Of a stretch of DNA of 64,000 nt, positions 2,738-51,098 are shown in pieces. Both the position numbers and the translations under genes were made by a program. The notes under the pieces were generated by a model. The model was not told the DNA's origin. It did no database searches and saw only the letters and a program-made list of their open reading frames with translations. Every line of letters starts with the position of its first letter. Position 1 is the stretch's first letter. Source of the DNA: Promethearchaeota archaeon (GTDB lineage: Archaea > Asgardarchaeota > Lokiarchaeia > Sigyniarchaeales > SOKP01); assembly GCA_011364925.1 (NCBI GenBank), contig RDOA01000002.1, forward strand, positions 129,044 to 193,043. Direction: 5' to 3'.

Positions 2738-4309
2738 TTACCAAGGTCTTCGCAATGTGGTTGGTCGACTCATAGTTGATTTCTCAGGATAGTCAATATT
2801 ATAATGAATACCGCGACTTTCCTTTCGAGAAATAGCGCTAACTATAATAAGTTTTGCTACTGTCGCTAAATTTCTTAATTCAATTAAATTTTTTTCTATC
2901 TGGAAATCCCAGTAATATTGATCGATTTCATCTAACAATAAATTAATACGCTTCTTAGCTCTTTGAAGGCGTAAATCTGTTCTTACAATTCCGACATAAT
3001 TCCACATAAATCTACGAATCTCATCCCAATTCTGCGTTATAATTACCGCTTCAGTAGAGGGTACTGCATTCCCGTGCTCCCATTCTTCAAACTGAATTAC
3101 TTTCAATGTATTTAGTCTATCATTTATAACGTTAGCGCATTCATGTGCGCAAACAAGACCTTCTAATAGTGAATTACTTGCTAATCGATTCGCTCCATGT
3201 AAACCTGTACAAGAGGATTCTCCAATAACATAAAGGCTTTTTACTTTAGTTGAGCCATCAATTTTAGTAAGTACTCCTCCAGTGCAATAATGGGCTGCTG
3301 GGACTACAGGAATAGGTTCTTTGGTTATATCGATATTAAATTTTAAGCATGTATCATATACTCCAGGAAAGTGATGTTTAATAAAATCAGCCTTACGATA
3401 TGAGGCGATATCGAGATATACATGATCATCACCTGTTCTTTTAAGTTCAGCATCAATTGCTCGAGATGCGATATCACGAGGTGCTAAATCCTTTAAAGGG
3501 TGATACTTTTGCATGAACTCATTTCCCCGGATGTCTTTAAGAACGGCACCTTCACCACGCATTGCTTCCGTGATTAAGAGTGATTTAGCATAAGGATGAT
3601 AAAGACAAGTGGGATGGAATTGATAGAATTCCATATTAGCAATAATTGCTCCTGCGCGATATGCCATAGCGATGCCATCTCCAGATGCAACATCTGGATT
3701 AGTAGTATAGAGATATATTTTCCCTGCTCCGCCTGTAGCTAATATAGTTGATTTAGCTGCGACATTATGAATCTCTCCTGATTTCTGATCTAAAATATAC
3801 GCACCATAACATTCAAAATTCTTGGAATATAGATTAATTGCACACCAATATTCTTTTATCTCAATGTTATTTAGCTTTTTGACCATTGTAATTAATTTCT
3901 GCTGAACACTCTGCCCTGTTAAATCATTTACATGTAGAATCCTCCTGTGAGAATGCCCTCCTTCTTTTCCAAGATCGTATTCTCCACTACTATTTCTCGT
4001 AAATTCTACGCCCCAGTCTATTAACTCTTTTACGCGTTCTGGAGCTTTACTAATGATTTTGCGTACAATAGATTCATCACATAAGCCATCGCCAGCTATC
4101 AATGTATCTTGTATATGTTTTTCTAGAGTGTCATCTTCATTCCAAACACAGGCGATCCCTCCTTGCGCATAATAGGTGTTACATTCTGTTAAATTTTCCT
4201 TGGTGACTAAGAGGATTTGTGTATTAGGAGCAAGTTTGGTTAGCTTAAGGGCTAATGATAATCCGGAGACTCCTCCTCCAATGATTAAAATGTCGGTTTT
4301 GATTTTCAA
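2738..4309 (-). CDS. nadB: L-aspartate oxidase
   Basis: FAD GxG motif, AQGGIA, EGGHSHRRILH, QFHPT, AHYCTGG, GLHGANRLASNSLLE, ESRGIH; TTG start. Confidence 0.93.
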   Translation of the reverse strand: MKIKTDILIIGGGVSGLSLALKLTKLAPNTQILLVTKENLTECNTYYAQGGIACVWNEDDTLEKHIQDTLIAGDGLCDESIVRKIISKAPERVKELIDWGVEFTRNSSGEYDLGKEGGHSHRRILHVNDLTGQSVQQKLITMVKKLNNIEIKEYWCAINLYSKNFECYGAYILDQKSGEIHNVAAKSTILATGGAGKIYLYTTNPDVASGDGIAMAYRAGAIIANMEFYQFHPTCLYHPYAKSLLITEAMRGEGAVLKDIRGNEFMQKYHPLKDLAPRDIASRAIDAELKRTGDDHVYLDIASYRKADFIKHHFPGVYDTCLKFNIDITKEPIPVVPAAHYCTGGVLTKIDGSTKVKSLYVIGESSCTGLHGANRLASNSLLEGLVCAHECANVINDRLNTLKVIQFEEWEHGNAVPSTEAVIITQNWDEIRRFMWNYVGIVRTDLRLQRAKKRINLLLDEIDQYYWDFQIEKNLIELRNLATVAKLIIVSAISRKESRGIHYNIDYPEKSTMSRPTTLRRPW

Positions 4310-4503: not shown

Positions 4504-5001
4504 ATGTCAAAAATAAAGAATGTACTCTACATCTGTAGTGGAAATACTTGTAGATCCCCTTTCGCCGAAGCTTTTTCGAAATGGCTTCAGAAAACAATAT
4601 ATGTTAATGAGATTCAGGAACTAAATTTTGATTCTGCTGGAATTTACCATTATTATGAACAACCTCAGGAAGGTACGTTAAAATATCTTAAAGCTAAAGG
4701 AATTGAGATGGATGACTTTGTAGCTAAAGATGTTGATGAAGAATTGCTAAACAATCAAGATTTAATTTTAGTATTCGAAGAGAAATACCATATTCGTAAA
4801 CTAAAAAGAAAATTCAGAAATCTTAAGAATTTAAACGAAAAGCTGTTTTTGTTATTAGATTTTGCTGGAGAAACAGAGGATTTAGAAATAATGGATCCTT
4901 TCTATTTAGATGAAATTGAGTATAATAAAACGCTCAAAAGAATTGAATCGGGGATCGTTAAATCAATAGAAAAGATTATCGAAATAAATAAATCTGCATA
5001 A
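4504..5001 (+). CDS. Low-molecular-weight phosphatase family protein (copy 1)
   Basis: P-loop CSGNTCRS, DSAG, DPF. Confidence 0.88.
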   Translation: MSKIKNVLYICSGNTCRSPFAEAFSKWLQKTIYVNEIQELNFDSAGIYHYYEQPQEGTLKYLKAKGIEMDDFVAKDVDEELLNNQDLILVFEEKYHIRKLKRKFRNLKNLNEKLFLLLDFAGETEDLEIMDPFYLDEIEYNKTLKRIESGIVKSIEKIIEINKSA

Positions 5002-44878: not shown

Positions 44879-45340
44879 TTAAGAACTAAGTTTTTCTTTT
44901 AAACCGGTGAGAGCATTCAACCACGCCTTTTCAAAATAGTTGCGAGCTTCATGCCAATCACGATCTTCTCTCCAACCAGTATGGAACAAATAAAGTAGTG
45001 TTTTTTTCGGATCCTTAGCGCTTGGAGTAAAAACGATAACTACATGCGTCAAGGGATCACAGAAATTCATAAAAGACTGATACATCTCTGGTCCTTTCCA
45101 TTCAAAGGATAGAAATTTATCTTTTTCAATGCTGGTAATCTTACAACCTAATGTACTATTAATTTCTGGATTCTGAGGTGACCAAAATAGTTCGTATTTT
45201 CCCCCAACTTTAGGTTCAACGTCAGCTTTCTCAGGTAGCCATGATTCTAATTTCTCGTTCACAGTAAATAAATCATAAGCCTGACTAACTGTACAATTTA
45301 ATTCGATCTCAATTTGTATTATGTTTTGCATTACAGACAC
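44879..45340 (-). CDS. SRPBCC/AHSA1-like domain protein
   Basis: LESW..., PKVGGKY, LSFEW, HTGW, terminal AWxxAL helix. Confidence 0.82.
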   Translation of the reverse strand: MSVMQNIIQIEIELNCTVSQAYDLFTVNEKLESWLPEKADVEPKVGGKYELFWSPQNPEINSTLGCKITSIEKDKFLSFEWKGPEMYQSFMNFCDPLTHVVIVFTPSAKDPKKTLLYLFHTGWREDRDWHEARNYFEKAWLNALTGLKEKLSS

Positions 45341-45400
45341 TTTAAAATATTGTTAATAGATGTTTTAATATAAAATAAGATAAAAATAATTATAAAATTT

Positions 45401-46168
45401 TTAAATCTCCTCGCCAGACTCCTTACCGAGTAAGCGTATAACGGAATCTGCAAGTTTGTTTTGACTTCGGCTCATTATTCCCTTGATTTTCCCTTCTCTT
45501 CCAAGAACTCGGAGCATGATACCGTTCCAAACTGAAGATGGATTTCCCTTTTCTCTTTTAAATCGGTCTCTATGAATATCTACGCTAATATTCTTGTAAT
45601 TCTTAGACGCATCTGAACACTTAAAACATAAGATACATTTATCAATGTCTACAGCTATGTCATTGCCGTCTCGTGACATAGCATCTACGGCGCATTCTTT
45701 AGTAAACGCGTCAATTACTTTAGTGTCTTTCTCAGTACAATTGAACTTAATCGAACCATCTACTACTTTCCGAACTTTCTGACCGTTTTCTAATGTGCGA
45801 ACTTCTTCTTCGAATTCTGCGAGTGAACCATTCTCTACTAATAAAATCTTGGGCTCGCCATTAATTAATAATTCAAGCGTATATCCTGGACATATCCACG
45901 AACAACTTCCACACCAAATGCATTTATCGGTATCGACAACAATTTTTTTATCCGATTCAATCCCCATTTCTTCTGGTTTTCCAATAGCCGTCTTTTTTAA
46001 TGGCTCATCGTAAATAGATACAGTTACAGGGCAAACTCTATGGCAAAAGCCGCATTCTACGCATTTACTTTCATCGTATTTCAGGATGCTCTCATGAGAT
46101 AGCATTTTGTAAACATAATGAGTAATATTCTCATCAATTTCAATTGCTTTTTTAGCCGGTAATGACAT
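45401..46168 (-). CDS. Multi-[4Fe-4S] ferredoxin-like protein
   Basis: CVECGFCHRVCP, CIWCGSCSWICP and a degenerate CILCFKC. Confidence 0.8.
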   Translation of the reverse strand: MSLPAKKAIEIDENITHYVYKMLSHESILKYDESKCVECGFCHRVCPVTVSIYDEPLKKTAIGKPEEMGIESDKKIVVDTDKCIWCGSCSWICPGYTLELLINGEPKILLVENGSLAEFEEEVRTLENGQKVRKVVDGSIKFNCTEKDTKVIDAFTKECAVDAMSRDGNDIAVDIDKCILCFKCSDASKNYKNISVDIHRDRFKREKGNPSSVWNGIMLRVLGREGKIKGIMSRSQNKLADSVIRLLGKESGEEI

Positions 46169-46256
46169 AATCCCTCACTTATATATTATTTCTTTAATTA
46201 AAATTATATTTTTGTATTTTTAAGAATTTATAAAAAATCTTTTTTCCGTAATCGAA

Positions 46257-47396
46257 TTATGTTTTTTCTAATTCCATTTGGCTAATCGCTTTACCAGACC
46301 TAAATGGTATATCATCAATACTTTCCCCAGAACTATATCCAAATTTTTCCTTGAAGGCGTCATTTAATGATTGAAAGTATAACGATAGAGGAAGATGTTG
46401 TGGGCAGTTGTTATCACAATTTCCGCATTCCACGCAACGATCGGCAACGTGAGCGATTCTTGTTAATTGATAAGATTCTTTGTTGATGATCTTTTCCTTT
46501 CTCTTCTTCATTAGGATACAGTCAACACAATAACATACAGGACAGCCACGAATGCACATGTTGCACATCGTACATTTCTGAAATTTATCGAGCTTTTCTT
46601 CTTGCGAAAGTTTGTCCCACTCTTCTAAATCTTTTGCTCTTTTTGCCAAAGCTGTATCTTTTATACCCTTAAGGACTTCTTGATATTTTACTTTCAGATC
46701 ATCAGGTAATGGTTTTTTATTGATTTTAGACTTCTCTACAAGCTCGGCGCCTTTATTCGAATAAATCTTTAGAACTATTTCGTCAGAATCAATAGGTAGA
46801 ACGAGATCACTTACAGCGATATCTGCTACAGCCGGAACCTTCCTATAGCATCGTGAACAGTTTTCTGCTATGTTCAATCCAACTTCTTTAGTGCTACCAT
46901 CTTCAAATTGAAGGATTAATCCATTATCACCGACTTTTTCCTTAACAATTTTAGTTAAATCGATGCCTTCTACTTTCTTTATCTCACGGGAAACATCTAC
47001 TACCATCCCTCTATCCTCAAATCCTACGATGAAGAGATTATCCATGTTAATCTGCCTAATCTTTGCTAGCTCAATTATCCCTCGAGCATCACAAGGACGA
47101 GCGATTATACCTACTTTCTCGTTTTTTGCCCCATCGACGGATTTATGTAAAAATTTTGCAGCAGTATCCGTTCGAGCGTATCCATATGCTATCAAATTAG
47201 TTAAAGGAAATGTAGCAAAATCTTCTGGCTTCTCAACAAGTACAGGAGAAACTGTAAACCGATCAACAGCCCCAGATTTCTTGTCTACCTTCAAGTTTGC
47301 TCCGATTACTTTATCAACGAATTTTTCTTGCAAAAGTGTAGCTAATAGTTTAGGAAAATCTTCAATTTTGATTAAATATTCATCTAATGCATCCAT
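46257..47396 (-). CDS. FdhB/FrhB-like (F420-interacting beta subunit family) Fe-S protein
   Basis: RPCDARGIIELAKIRQIN, CSRC...ADI, CTMCNMCIRGCPVCYC, CVECGNCDNNCP. Confidence 0.75.
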   Translation of the reverse strand: MDALDEYLIKIEDFPKLLATLLQEKFVDKVIGANLKVDKKSGAVDRFTVSPVLVEKPEDFATFPLTNLIAYGYARTDTAAKFLHKSVDGAKNEKVGIIARPCDARGIIELAKIRQINMDNLFIVGFEDRGMVVDVSREIKKVEGIDLTKIVKEKVGDNGLILQFEDGSTKEVGLNIAENCSRCYRKVPAVADIAVSDLVLPIDSDEIVLKIYSNKGAELVEKSKINKKPLPDDLKVKYQEVLKGIKDTALAKRAKDLEEWDKLSQEEKLDKFQKCTMCNMCIRGCPVCYCVDCILMKKRKEKIINKESYQLTRIAHVADRCVECGNCDNNCPQHLPLSLYFQSLNDAFKEKFGYSSGESIDDIPFRSGKAISQMELEKT

Positions 47397-47493
47397 GTTA
47401 TTCCAACTCTAATTTGTATTAATTTCTCTAAAATTTATTTTTAATTTTTTTACTTTCTTTCTCACATTACACTTATTTACTAAAATTTTATTT

Positions 47494-47566
47494 ATGTGTT
47501 CTATGGTGCTCCCATCTCTTCTGCTGAGTTCTCGTTTTTTTAACTCAGCGTCATCAGCAAACACAT
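47494..47566 (-). promoter_or_regulatory. Eukaryote-type SECIS element 3' of hdrA-mvhD
   Basis: Minus strand ATGTGTT-TGCTG-ATGAC-GCTGAGTT-AAAAAAACGAG-AACTCAGC-AGAA-...-AACACAT: outer helix, AUGA/GA core, perfect 8-bp upper stem, A-rich loop. Confidence 0.88.
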
Positions 47567-47574
47567 TTATTAAT

Positions 47575-48021
47575 TCAAGCTTTCGCTTTTTCTTTTTGTG
47601 TGCCACTTTTAGATTTTAATGGACTTGGTCCTAGTTCTCGTATGACTTTATCGAATTTTATGGCTTCTTGTTGAAACTTTTGGCCTTCTGCTGCTGTACA
47701 ATATCCAAACATTATCCGTTCTTCACTGAGTCCCATTGATTTTAGAACTTCTTTCATATACTCAACTTGTCTATACGCGGCGTAATTTCCCGTCTCGTAA
47801 TCGCATTCTTTTGGATATCATCCAATAATCATCACACCGTCAGCTCCTCTCCCAAACGATCGCATAACCGTATCCGGATCGACTCTACCCGTGCAAGGAA
47901 CTAAAACTACTCTAATTGATAGTGGGTATTGGGCTCTTATTGTTCCCGCCATATCAGCAGAGCCATATCCTCATTTCCAGCACAGAAACGCTATAATTTT
48001 AATTTCTTGTTCTTCTGTCAT
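47575..48021 (-). CDS. mvhD: Selenocysteine-containing hydrogenase delta subunit MvhD/VhuD (148 aa, Sec17 and Sec68)
   Basis: MTEEQEIKIIAFLCWKUGYGSADMAG...VPCTGRVD...GADGVMIIGUYPKECDY...; TGA at 47973-47971 and 47820-47818, in frame with the 60-aa track ORF. Confidence 0.93.
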
Positions 48022-48034
48022 GTTAATTACCTCT

Positions 48035-50011
48035 CTATTCCTCCATTGGAAGTAATGCATCGATTTGTGCTATATACTGATCGTCTCTAAAATATGTTAG
48101 TTCAATTGCTTTGGAGGGACACGTTGCTGTACAGGATCCACAACCGCGACATTTGATTATATCAACTTCTAAGTGGCCTTCGTTGTTTACAGAAATGGCA
48201 GAATACGGACATATTTCAATGCATTTATAACACTTTGCACATCTCTCGTCTATTGGAGTAGCTCGTATTAGTTCCATCGTATGTTCACCTCTACCCATCG
48301 GTATACTAGCAGCTGACGCAGCTCCTCTTGCTTGACTTACGGCTTTATCGATCTCTTTTTGTCCTTGAGCTGAACCCGCAATGTAAATTCCCATTGTTTT
48401 TGTACTGATCGGATCTAACCTAGCATGATATTCCTTTAAAAACCCATCGGGACTTTTCTCCATGTTAATAACCCTTGCAATTTCTACTGTTCCTTTAGAT
48501 GGAAGCGATGCCGGCGATAAAACTACCATCTCAAATTCCATTGTAACTACGGTATCGGTTCCAACAGGCTCAAATTGTACTGTTAAATTCTTTGTTAGTG
48601 GATCTTCTTGGATATCTCCAACTATTCCCTTAACAAAAATTATCCCCGCATTTCTTGAACGCCTATAGTATTCTTCGTAATCTTTTCCTGCGCATCTCAT
48701 ATCTATATAAGAACATAATATATCTGAATCAGGATACTCCGATTTTATTAATTTCGAGTTCTTTAGAGACAAATTGCAGCATATTACTGAACAGTGCGCG
48801 TTTTTCGTGACATCTCTACTCCCTACGCAATTGATAAATAATATTTTTTTTGGGCGTTTTCCATCAGATGGTCGTTTTAAGTGGCCATATGTAGGTCCGT
48901 TAGGAGCTAATATTCGTTCAAGCTGAATTTGATTGATTACATTATCGTAGGTTCCAAATCCATAATCTGGTCCTTCATAGATGTCCCACCCCGTTGCAAC
49001 TATTATTGTCCCAACTTCGAGATCTACATATTCATCTTGAATGCTAAAATCGATCGCGTCTTCTTCACACGAATCAACGCAAGCAAAACATTCTACACAG
49101 GTTTCTCGATTTATATCGTAAATAGCAGGAACTGCTTGGGCAAAGGCAATATCAATACATTTTCTCGCAGATAATCCTTCATCGAAGTAATTTGGAATGT
49201 AAATTGGACATACTTCAGTACAGGCTCCGCATCCCGTACATTTAGTTTCACTAACGAATCGGGATTTCCTTTTAACCTTAACCCTGAAATTACCAATATA
49301 CCCATCAACTTGGATGACTTCGGAGTAAGATAATATTTCAATATTTTTATGGCGGTTTGCTTCTAACATCTTCGGTCCGAGAATTCATATCGAACAGTCA
49401 TCTGTAGGAAAAGTTCTATCTAATTGACTCATTCTTCCACCGATCGTAGTGTTTTTCTCAACTAAATATACTTTAAATCCTTTGTCTCCTAAGTCAATTG
49501 CGGCTGATAATCCAGCAATTCCTCCACCAATTACGAGAGCTTCCTTTTTAACGGGAACTGTTTTCGTGGGTACATCTTCTAATAATCGCGCTCGTGCTAT
49601 TCCCGCGGTTATGAGCTCAATTGCTTTCTGAACGGCTTTTTCTCTGTCTTCTGGAGCTTGGTGGACAAAGCTACAATGTTCTCTGATGTTTACAAATTCT
49701 AAATATCTTGGAGGAATATTAGCTTCGCTAAGTATTGCGTGAAAGACGGGTTGATGCGTCTTTGGAGTGCACGCAGCTACAACGATTCTTTCGAGTTTAA
49801 ATTCTTCGATCTGTTCCTTTATGTATTCTGAACCTCCCTCGGTTCACATAGAAAGATATTCGTATGCTTTAACTCTATCTAATTTGTTTAATTCTTCAAC
49901 AATTCTAGGTACGTCTAGTATTCCAGCGATATTTATACCTCAGCGACACACAAATACACCAACAACTGATTTCTCAGTGTTTTCATCATCCTTGGTCTGA
50001 TTTCCAGACAA
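48035..50011 (-). CDS. hdrA: Selenocysteine-containing heterodisulfide reductase subunit A (658 aa, Sec24, Sec56, Sec209)
   Basis: TTG start after in-frame TAA; GVFVCRUGINI, YLSMUTEGG, VVAACTP, NIREHCSFVH, IGGGIAG, TFPTDDCSIUILGPKM; TGA at 49942-40, 49846-44, 49387-85, in frame with track ORF 48035..49369. Confidence 0.93.
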
Positions 50012-50294
50012 CCTTTACACCTTTGTATATATATCCTCCTAATAATTCAAGAGTCTATACTTCACTAATAGCTTCTTTATTATTTCTAATACATAATAAT
50101 TATGTTATGTAAAATAGTTCTTATTATTAAAATTCAATTATTATTAGTCTTAAATAGGAAAGTTTTGAGTTTGGAACTTTCTTCATTTAGGATTTATGTC
50201 GAAAATCCGATTTAGTATTAGATTAGATAAAAATTATAACTAATGATCGTATTTTTTACTCTTAAGTATAATATTTATTAATTGAGGATTATCT

Positions 50295-51098
50295 ATGCTA
50301 GAATCTCAACCTCAAACTGAAAAAAAAAAGAAATATAGAATCGACGAACTCCAAAGAAAAACATTAATTGGGAAGATTTATCCAATACTTTTAATTGGAT
50401 CGTTAATTTGGTTAGCAGGAGAACTCTTATTTAGCTATTTATTCTCAGATCTGGAATTAACAGGAATAAATTTAATTTATTATATTATTGTGGTAATAGT
50501 AGAAGTGAATTTATTTGTCACATTTTTCTTTACTTCCCGATATAATAAAACACTATTGAGCTTCTTAATTTTTATAGTACTGTCCTTTCTTTTGGGAATT
50601 TTAAGTTTACCCATAGTAATTTTCACACAATTTATTCCCCAACTTCACATGTTCGTAAGTCTCTCTGTGGGTGCAAATCTTATAGTTAACTTCATGACGC
50701 TCTTTTTAAGAGATAAATACTTCTCTAAAGGGTATATTTGGACGCATCTGTTATTGTTCTTGGTTGGTTGTGCAATAGTAGAACTTGTATTTATTTTTGT
50801 TTTTAATATCCATAACTTCTTGTTAACTATACCAATCTCCTTAGCGTATATTTTGATCGTTTCCATGATTTTGATCTTTTTTGGCGTTCGAATGGTTCAG
50901 CAAATTAAAGAAAATAATTGGATGTACGCCTTATTTAAAATTCTTGGGGTCATATTATTATCCCTTGCAGTAGCTGTTGTAATTGTTGTAATCGTACTTA
51001 TTGCGATCGCATGTATAATTGCCGGTGATAGTGCTGTAGATTTATCAGGTTTCGCTGGCGGTGGAGGACCCAGAAGAAAAAAGAAGAAACTACAGTAA
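50295..51098 (+). CDS. Hypothetical polytopic membrane protein (~7 TM)
   Basis: Highly hydrophobic with a basic C-terminus; weak resemblance to Bax-inhibitor-1/YccA topology. Confidence 0.6.
   Translation: MLESQPQTEKKKKYRIDELQRKTLIGKIYPILLIGSLIWLAGELLFSYLFSDLELTGINLIYYIIVVIVEVNLFVTFFFTSRYNKTLLSFLIFIVLSFLLGILSLPIVIFTQFIPQLHMFVSLSVGANLIVNFMTLFLRDKYFSKGYIWTHLLLFLVGCAIVELVFIFVFNIHNFLLTIPISLAYILIVSMILIFFGVRMVQQIKENNWMYALFKILGVILLSLAVAVVIVVIVLIAIACIIAGDSAVDLSGFAGGGGPRRKKKKLQ

Follow-up and report, generated by a model that had tools for sequence, protein, structure and literature searches.

The closest described systems to the genes discussed here are in the Asgard archaea. Tandem HdrA-VhuD pairs in which a single selenocysteine insertion sequence (SECIS) of the type named lokiSECIS follows VhuD, with up to six UGA codons over about 2 kb, were reported from Lokiarchaeota in 2016 (Mariotti et al. 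2016, PMC4989117), and in 2024 the arrangement was generalised to 227 selenocysteine (Sec)-using Asgard genomes (Huang et al. 2024, PMC11227280). The inference that hdrA and mvhD share one SECIS has thus been published before. The locus that we describe is in a stretch of 64,000 nucleotides (the window) from a Promethearchaeota archaeon (assembly GCA_011364925.1, contig RDOA01000002.1, positions 129,044 to 193,043 of the forward strand), where an hdrA gene, an mvhD gene (also known as vhuD) and a SECIS lie within positions 47494 to 50011 of the window, on the minus strand. We think it likely that both genes are on one polycistronic mRNA, and that their five internal UGA codons are all decoded as Sec by means of the one SECIS that follows mvhD.

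With regard to the pairs of Mariotti et al (PMC4989117), our locus has the same gene order and strand, the very short gap, a multi-Sec HdrA that includes the canonical site and a two-Sec VhuD. It also has the one element after VhuD, with AUGA, a stem, an A-rich loop of 11 nt ending in AG, and GA. In both the HdrA stop codon is never UGA while that of VhuD sometimes is. Nothing essential differs, the particulars of our locus being that it has three plus two Sec and that the ninth “pair” of the stem is a C/A mismatch. The outer helix and side hairpin found in our group of orthologues, discussed below, are not in the main text of that paper. In the Asgard clusters of Huang et al (PMC11227280) hdrA and frhD/mvhD are likewise always neighbours and almost all share one structure resembling the eukaryotic SECIS, which like ours is of type I with no apical mini-stem. 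No SBP2 was found there either, and we found no difference. The closest relative of the locus is in isolate bin41, with 91% identity in HdrA, and a 2026 review gives the bin41 metagenome-assembled genome (MAG) as having the largest archaeal selenoproteome.

More distant systems share part of this. The HdrA(u) and VhuD proteins of the Methanococcales are orthologous to ours, with an unknown residue (X) in the solved structure 9sfi at the columns of HdrA 209 and of VhuD 17 and 68, and the SECIS is again in the 3' untranslated region and acts at a distance (PMC9622424). However, in the Methanococcales there is one Sec in HdrA and the SECIS is of the GAA/A type. The eukaryotic SECIS (RF00031) resembles ours in the AUGA...GA kink-turn core, the unpaired A's of the apical loop, its 3' location, a reach of kilobases (proposed for ours) and an apparent lower limit to the distance between UGA and SECIS, but in our case helix II is shorter (8-9 bp), the mRNA would be polycistronic and no SBP2 is known. 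The multi-Sec mRNA of selenoprotein P is unlike ours in having two SECIS elements within one open reading frame (ORF).

Under the standard code this part of the window has only short ORFs, and it is when TGA is read through that hdrA and mvhD appear. The initial annotation had given a 658-aa HdrA with three TGA codons and a 148-aa MvhD with two, and had taken the 13 nt between the genes as leaving no room for a 3' SECIS specific to hdrA. These coordinates and counts are correct, and the gap is as claimed. The features are as follows.

50012..50294, minus strand: 5' leader and promoter region of hdrA, with no SECIS-like element.
50011..48035, minus strand: hdrA, 658 codons, TTG start, TAG stop at 48037-48035, the frame needing TGA read-through.
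49940..49942, minus strand: UGA at HdrA codon 24, context VCR-U-G, peptide VCR-U-GINIAGILDVPR.
49844..49846, minus strand: UGA at HdrA codon 56, context SM-U-TEGG.
49385..49387, minus strand: UGA at HdrA codon 209, context DDCSI-U-ILGPK, the canonical HdrA Sec site adjoining the flavin (FAD).
48022..48034, minus strand: hdrA-mvhD spacer, 13 nt, with the Shine-Dalgarno motif AGAGGT directly 3' of the TAG.
48021..47575, minus strand: mvhD/vhuD (FlpD family), 148 codons, ATG start, Pfam PF02662 at E 5e-43.
47973-47971, minus strand: in-frame UGA at MvhD codon 17.
47820-47818, minus strand: in-frame UGA at MvhD codon 68.
47577-47575, minus strand: terminal codon of mvhD, also UGA and so the sixth of the pair, 20 nt 5' of the SECIS core.

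The product of hdrA is subunit A, the flavin and iron-sulfur (FeS) subunit, of bifurcating complexes of the heterodisulfide-reductase type, and its start column has TTG, ATG or GTG in 70 of 72 orthologues. From the first hdrA UGA to the AUGA of the SECIS (47554) is 2386 nt, and the two mvhD UGA codons are 417 and 264 nt upstream of the SECIS. The parts of the element are given next.

47513..47560, minus strand: Loki-type (eukaryote-like, type I) SECIS, 50.9 bits and E 3e-10 with our covariance model R1.
47554-47551, minus strand: AUGA, with an unpaired C at 47550.
47549-47542 paired with 47530-47523, minus strand: helix II, 8 Watson-Crick pairs.
47541-47531, minus strand: apical loop AAAAAAACGAG, 11 nt, A's first and AG last.
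47522, minus strand: unpaired A, with GA at 47521-47520.

The element lies 20 nt 3' of the mvhD stop and reads AUGA-C-GCUGAGUU-AAAAAAACGAG-AACUCAGC-A-GA. It has every feature of a lokiSECIS, namely AUGA, a stem of nine positions, an 11-nt loop with at least five A's and AG at its end, and GA; the ninth stem position, the first of the stem, is the non-canonical C/A, as it is in all seven elements of the genome. Homologous elements are found 12-21 nt 3' of mvhD in the orthologues. Model R1 was made from 32 aligned elements, 29 from related post-mvhD loci and three from other selenoprotein genes of the genome, and AUGA and GA are invariant in all 32. Compensatory changes are present at all eight helix pairs, with a covariation score of 1.145 as against 0.25 in shuffles.

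The initial annotation saw the only convincing SECIS after mvhD, about 2.4 kb from the first UGA, and the covariance model bears this out. With filters off R1 has one match in the whole window, that at 47513-47560, the next best (14.2 bits) being elsewhere. Neither gene has a match in its coding sequence, and the gap of 13 nt and the 5' leader are likewise free of matches. A SECIS in the 5' leader was considered and rejected, as in 50012..50294 there is neither an R1 match nor a conserved block that is SECIS-like: the only conserved blocks, upstream of the TTG, are an AT-rich box, GGAGG and AAGGTG. The Rfam families, scanned over 45000-51000 at E up to 10, gave no SECIS and just chance matches to miRNA and scaRNA, and the element, though it resembles the eukaryotic SECIS, is outside the RF00031 model. 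Insertion of Sec is predicted to be directed by a Loki-type SECIS.

For comparison 80 hdrA loci were fetched by protein similarity, of which 77 have a complete hdrA-mvhD pair. There is exactly one strong R1 match in 75 of the 77, always directly after mvhD. The hdrA stop codon is TAA or TAG in all 77, as predicted if every distant UGA on the mRNA is recoded, and that of mvhD is TGA in 9, near the genome-wide 13.5%; the 77 loci are related by descent, and these stop-codon counts are not a formal test. Only two of the 77 pairs, at locus L118 with 25 nt and at locus L143 with 933 nt, have a spacer outside the range of 10-17 nt, and the Shine-Dalgarno motif (A/G)GAGGT recurs after the hdrA stop in the junction sequences examined. 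A Helarchaeota locus (L142) has two R1 matches, both weak. The genome itself has four hdrA-mvhD pairs, one each on contigs C38 and C5 and two on C112, and each of the four has two Sec in MvhD, at least three in HdrA, TAG as the hdrA stop and one SECIS.

Of the other explanations, the first is that hdrA has a signal of its own, be it a hairpin in the coding sequence, a SECIS of the euryarchaeal GAA/A type or an element within the mvhD ORF, and that the SECIS after mvhD serves mvhD alone. R1 detects only Loki-type elements, and occasional GAA_A-like structures have been found in Asgard 3' regions (Huang et al. 2024, PMC11227280). There is also a distant homologue in which hdrA does possess its own SECIS. 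This is L143 (CAZYEE010000045.1, uncultured archaeon, L143:1429-4832), where HdrA is 58% identical to ours and the two widely separated genes each have a lokiSECIS right after the stop codon (3452-3501 and 4785-4832). On these predicted elements L143 is a natural control for the shared layout, as well as a counter-example to it. However, in our locus the gap is just 13 nt, Rfam gave no match, and in a codon alignment of 72 sequences synonymous diversity is flat (mean 0.48) across hdrA and mvhD, the only low windows being the initial codons of each gene. Among these 72 orthologues no dip, and so no constrained block, follows any of the UGA codons or is present where hdrA ends, and given the flat diversity it is unlikely that the coding sequence contains a conserved RNA structure. 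An RNAz scan of coding sequences by Mariotti et al (2016, PMC4989117) also found nothing else. We therefore consider a separate hdrA signal to be very improbable.

The read-through products can be matched along their whole length with solved HdrA and MvhD. Residues 17-654 of HdrA match chain 9sfi_A, of the best solved homologue (E 7e-207), with further matches to 5odc_A, 8rvu_a and 7bkb_A, and Pfam gives FAD and 4Fe-4S (ferredoxin) domains. MvhD is a full FlpD domain that matches solved MvhD/VhuD chains at E 1e-36, and its two Sec, separated by about 50 codons, are where VhuD has them. HdrA codons 24 and 56 are aligned to Cys in PDB 9sfi, the former in VCYCG, and codon 209 to X in 9sfi_A; at MvhD codons 17 and 68 chain 9sfi_K has X and chain 9sw2_D has Cys. 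In the Hdr-Vhu-Fwd assembly of M. maripaludis, HdrA Sec197 is in a Cys-Sec pair near the FAD (2026, PMC13518236).

Codon columns were counted in 72 orthologous hdrA-mvhD pairs from Promethearchaeota MAGs, with the following result for hdrA.

Column 24: TGA in 71 of 71, TGT or TGC in none.
Column 56: TGA in 9, TGT or TGC in 63.
Column 81: TGA in 5, TGT or TGC in 67.
Column 209: TGA in 72 of 72, TGT or TGC in none.

Both mvhD columns are TGA in all orthologues, three rows being displaced by one alignment column. Columns 56 and 81 of hdrA alternate between TGA and TGT/TGC, with column 56 a classic Sec/Cys exchange, and TGA is confined to Sec/Cys columns and is never elsewhere in either frame. Elsewhere in the genome UGA is an ordinary stop codon, ending 207 of the 1529 ORFs of at least 300 aa (13.5%). 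It had been claimed that every TGA sits at a conserved Cys position, and this holds both for the solved homologues, which have Cys or X there, and for the Cys/Sec columns of the orthologues. That all five internal UGA codons are at Cys or Sec columns, and not by chance, is confirmed by these alignments.

A second alternative is that some of the UGA codons, for example codon 56, are read as Cys or Trp by near-cognate tRNAs with no part played by a SECIS, or that termination is frequent and the full-length five-Sec product rare. In the case of codon 56 the presence of Cys in 63 of 72 orthologues means that Cys is functionally tolerated there. However, the genome uses UGA as a normal stop, the avoidance of UGA as hdrA stop in 77 of 77 loci implies efficient recoding of UGA on the mRNA, and TGA at codon 56 is retained in a clade of 9 orthologues, and we think this alternative very improbable. 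The last, that the TGA codons are disruptions (pseudogenes or assembly errors) or reflect reassignment of UGA throughout the genome, has in its favour that both genes fall apart into short ORFs under table 11, but it is excluded, as nearly as such a thing can be, because more than 70 independent assemblies agree in having these TGA codons at these columns and UGA is otherwise an ordinary stop, with 207 long ORFs ending in TGA and the neighbouring genes intact under table 11.

The genome (3.9 Mb, 112 contigs, 33% G+C) has the complete Sec machinery: tRNA-Sec, PSTK, SepSecS, EFSec and SelD, for which the initial annotation had suggested a search, are all present. SepSecS (TIGR03531, 473 bits) is on contig C64, with EFSec (best family selB, 230 bits) 3 kb away. 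PSTK is a full-length match to TIGR03574 at 169 bits, under the curated cut-off. There are two SelD genes with one in-frame TGA each, and R1 found no Loki-type element beside either, which agrees with a published remark that SPS uses another form of SECIS. The tRNA-Sec gene (C64:6532-6681, plus strand) is about 220 nt upstream of SepSecS and has two introns, one of 28 nt in the anticodon loop and one of about 31 nt in the T loop. It was located with a tRNA-Sec of the same genus as DNA query. In unspliced form it was missed by ARAGORN, with and without introns allowed, by the Rfam tRNA-Sec model over the whole genome and by a scan for D arm and anticodon arm; once spliced it is called by ARAGORN as tRNA-SeC(tca), with an acceptor stem of 9 bp. 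A tRNA at C64:17347-17446 that had been a candidate for tRNA-Sec turned out to be an intron-bearing tRNA-Ser(GGA). In the published Loki tRNA-Sec only the T-loop intron is present, and several genomes of the same genus have an intron-less gene. ARAGORN finds just 11-12 tRNA genes in this 3.9-Mb assembly, which is rated 100% complete. Many tRNA genes of the genome probably carry non-canonical or multiple introns, like those for tRNA-Sec and tRNA-Ser(GGA).

We suggest the following mechanism. A single transcript would carry hdrA, the 13-nt spacer, mvhD, the SECIS and perhaps the two FeS-protein genes that follow. The kink-turn SECIS, 20 nt after mvhD, would bring archaeal EFSec and Sec-tRNASec to the mRNA, and would work in cis on the RNA molecule and not on one reading frame. 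It could therefore serve ribosomes that are translating hdrA, as much as 2.4 kb upstream, and also those in mvhD. A ribosome at any sufficiently distant upstream UGA, in either cistron, would then insert Sec. If distant UGA codons are all recoded, hdrA must end in UAG or UAA; its UAG would not be recodable, and the Shine-Dalgarno motif right behind it would initiate mvhD. The UGA that ends mvhD is separated from helix I by only about 9 nt and from AUGA by 20 nt, such that a ribosome there would cover or melt the SECIS, and this UGA would be read as stop because the release factor then wins. A rule of minimal UGA-SECIS distance was proposed by Mariotti et al (PMC4989117), and in Methanococcus a 3' SECIS is functional in vivo at 520-679 nt and also directly after the stop codon (PMC9622424). 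We infer from the genome sequence that the two genes are co-transcribed, that the SECIS acts at long range and past the hdrA stop, that the minimal-distance rule applies and that there is a SECIS-binding factor. With regard to the last, an L7Ae-type kink-turn protein would be a guess only.

Several points weigh against the interpretation that one SECIS serves all five UGA codons. Asgard archaea are not known to have an SBP2 (PMC4989117, PMC11227280) that could be the binding partner. A Loki SECIS placed in Methanococcus maripaludis was non-functional (PMC11881835), and there is no experimental demonstration for any Loki SECIS (PMC4989117, PMC11881835). Five successive recoding events could be inefficient unless there is a mechanism for processivity. 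The sequences used to train R1 were chosen by their pairing pattern, which makes the figure of 98% paired partly circular, but this circularity does not extend to the compensatory changes at homologous positions. As far as computation goes, the sharing of the one SECIS by the five UGA codons is nevertheless supported.

The SECIS of this locus is within a larger conserved block, which has the following parts.

47494..47566, minus strand: extended SECIS context, about 73 nt, more than 90% conserved in 64 orthologues.
47566-47560 paired with 47500-47494, minus strand: outer helix I, AUGUGUU with AACACAU.
47515-47503, minus strand: side hairpin AUGG-GAGCA-CCAU, in the 3' half of the internal loop.

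The minimum free energy fold has both helix I and the side hairpin (z -2.4). The pairs of helix I are formed in 88-98% of the 64 orthologues, with few compensatory changes, and the side hairpin has the form AUGG-N5-CCAU with the stem invariant and the loop variable. The block is more than 90% conserved although synonymous sites in the same group of orthologues are saturated. A mini-ORF within the side hairpin, ATG-GGA-GCA-CCA-TAG, was considered and is not retained as an ORF in the orthologues. The other three hdrA-mvhD pairs of the genome do not have these flanks but have GAC-N-AACCA, and because of this the extension is specific to the group and is not required for sharing. It is conceivable, if rather doubtful, that the 73-nt context is a functional add-on to the core SECIS, as a second site for protein binding, as a three-way junction raising processivity or range for the five UGA codons of the two cistrons, or in coupling Sec decoding to formation of the 3' end.

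Downstream of mvhD are two genes for FeS proteins.

47396-46257, minus strand: FrhB/FdhB-like FeS protein, Pfam PF04432 and 4Fe-4S domains, downstream of mvhD.
46168-45401, minus strand: polyferredoxin with 4Fe-4S domains, downstream of the FrhB/FdhB-like gene.

There is no UGA inside either gene (45401..47396), and between the SECIS and the next ATG there is no run of five or more T. Both genes may be on the hdrA-mvhD transcript. The immediate cluster (45401-50011, minus strand) has no gene for a hydrogenase large or small subunit and no hdrBC, which suggests that it is a non-methanogenic bifurcating module.

A scan of the genome for the SECIS pattern led to two further genes. The first is an ORF of 154 codons at C32:33102-33566 on the plus strand (L161:503-967), with a second copy at C39:19298-19768 on the minus strand. 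It has two adjacent in-frame TGA codons (..LIVHAD-U-U-ADNMRERLDFG..) and a TGA stop followed 5 nt later by a lokiSECIS, and there was no Pfam match. Of 40 genomes sampled from the same taxonomic family 36 have homologues, and with the C32 gene as query none was found among 160 other Asgard genomes sampled. Each of about 50 full-length matches has two or three TGA codons, with no Cys-Cys form seen, and in all 20 loci fetched there is an R1 match right after the gene. Entries in public databases are cut at HAD or have WW at the UU site, the WW probably coming from gene callers using code 4. Neither the archaeal selenoprotein families given in 2024 (PMC11227280) nor those of the 2026 review include this one, and on sequence features we put forward the C32 gene as a candidate for a new Sec-Sec selenoprotein family, of a kind that would be missed by searches relying on Sec/Cys pairs. 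The AlphaFold model is of low confidence (pLDDT 60) and has weak Foldseek matches to ubiquitin-like (beta-grasp) folds at E about 4e-3, which is a lead only.

The second, at C41:11754-11936 on the minus strand (L162:355-537), encodes a predicted membrane protein of 61 aa with one in-frame UGA, ending in ..DTGGG-U-PNIC.., and with a lokiSECIS directly after it. Relatives that retain the TGA are in two genomes of the same genus (49% and 42% identity), and again there was no Pfam match. It is a candidate small selenoprotein.

The locus illustrates well the most extreme use known for a single SECIS, which would serve five or six UGA codons over about 2.4 kb and in two cistrons. It is relevant to the question of whether the target of a SECIS is the mRNA molecule or a single ORF, and, as a eukaryote-like element in the archaeal lineage closest to eukaryotes, to the origin of the eukaryotic Sec system. 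Both had already been raised in 2016 and were extended in 2024, and what the window contributes is confirmation and not discovery. What is added here is the comparison of 77 loci, the synonymous-site test, the L143 control, the conserved extension of the SECIS and the candidate Sec-Sec family.

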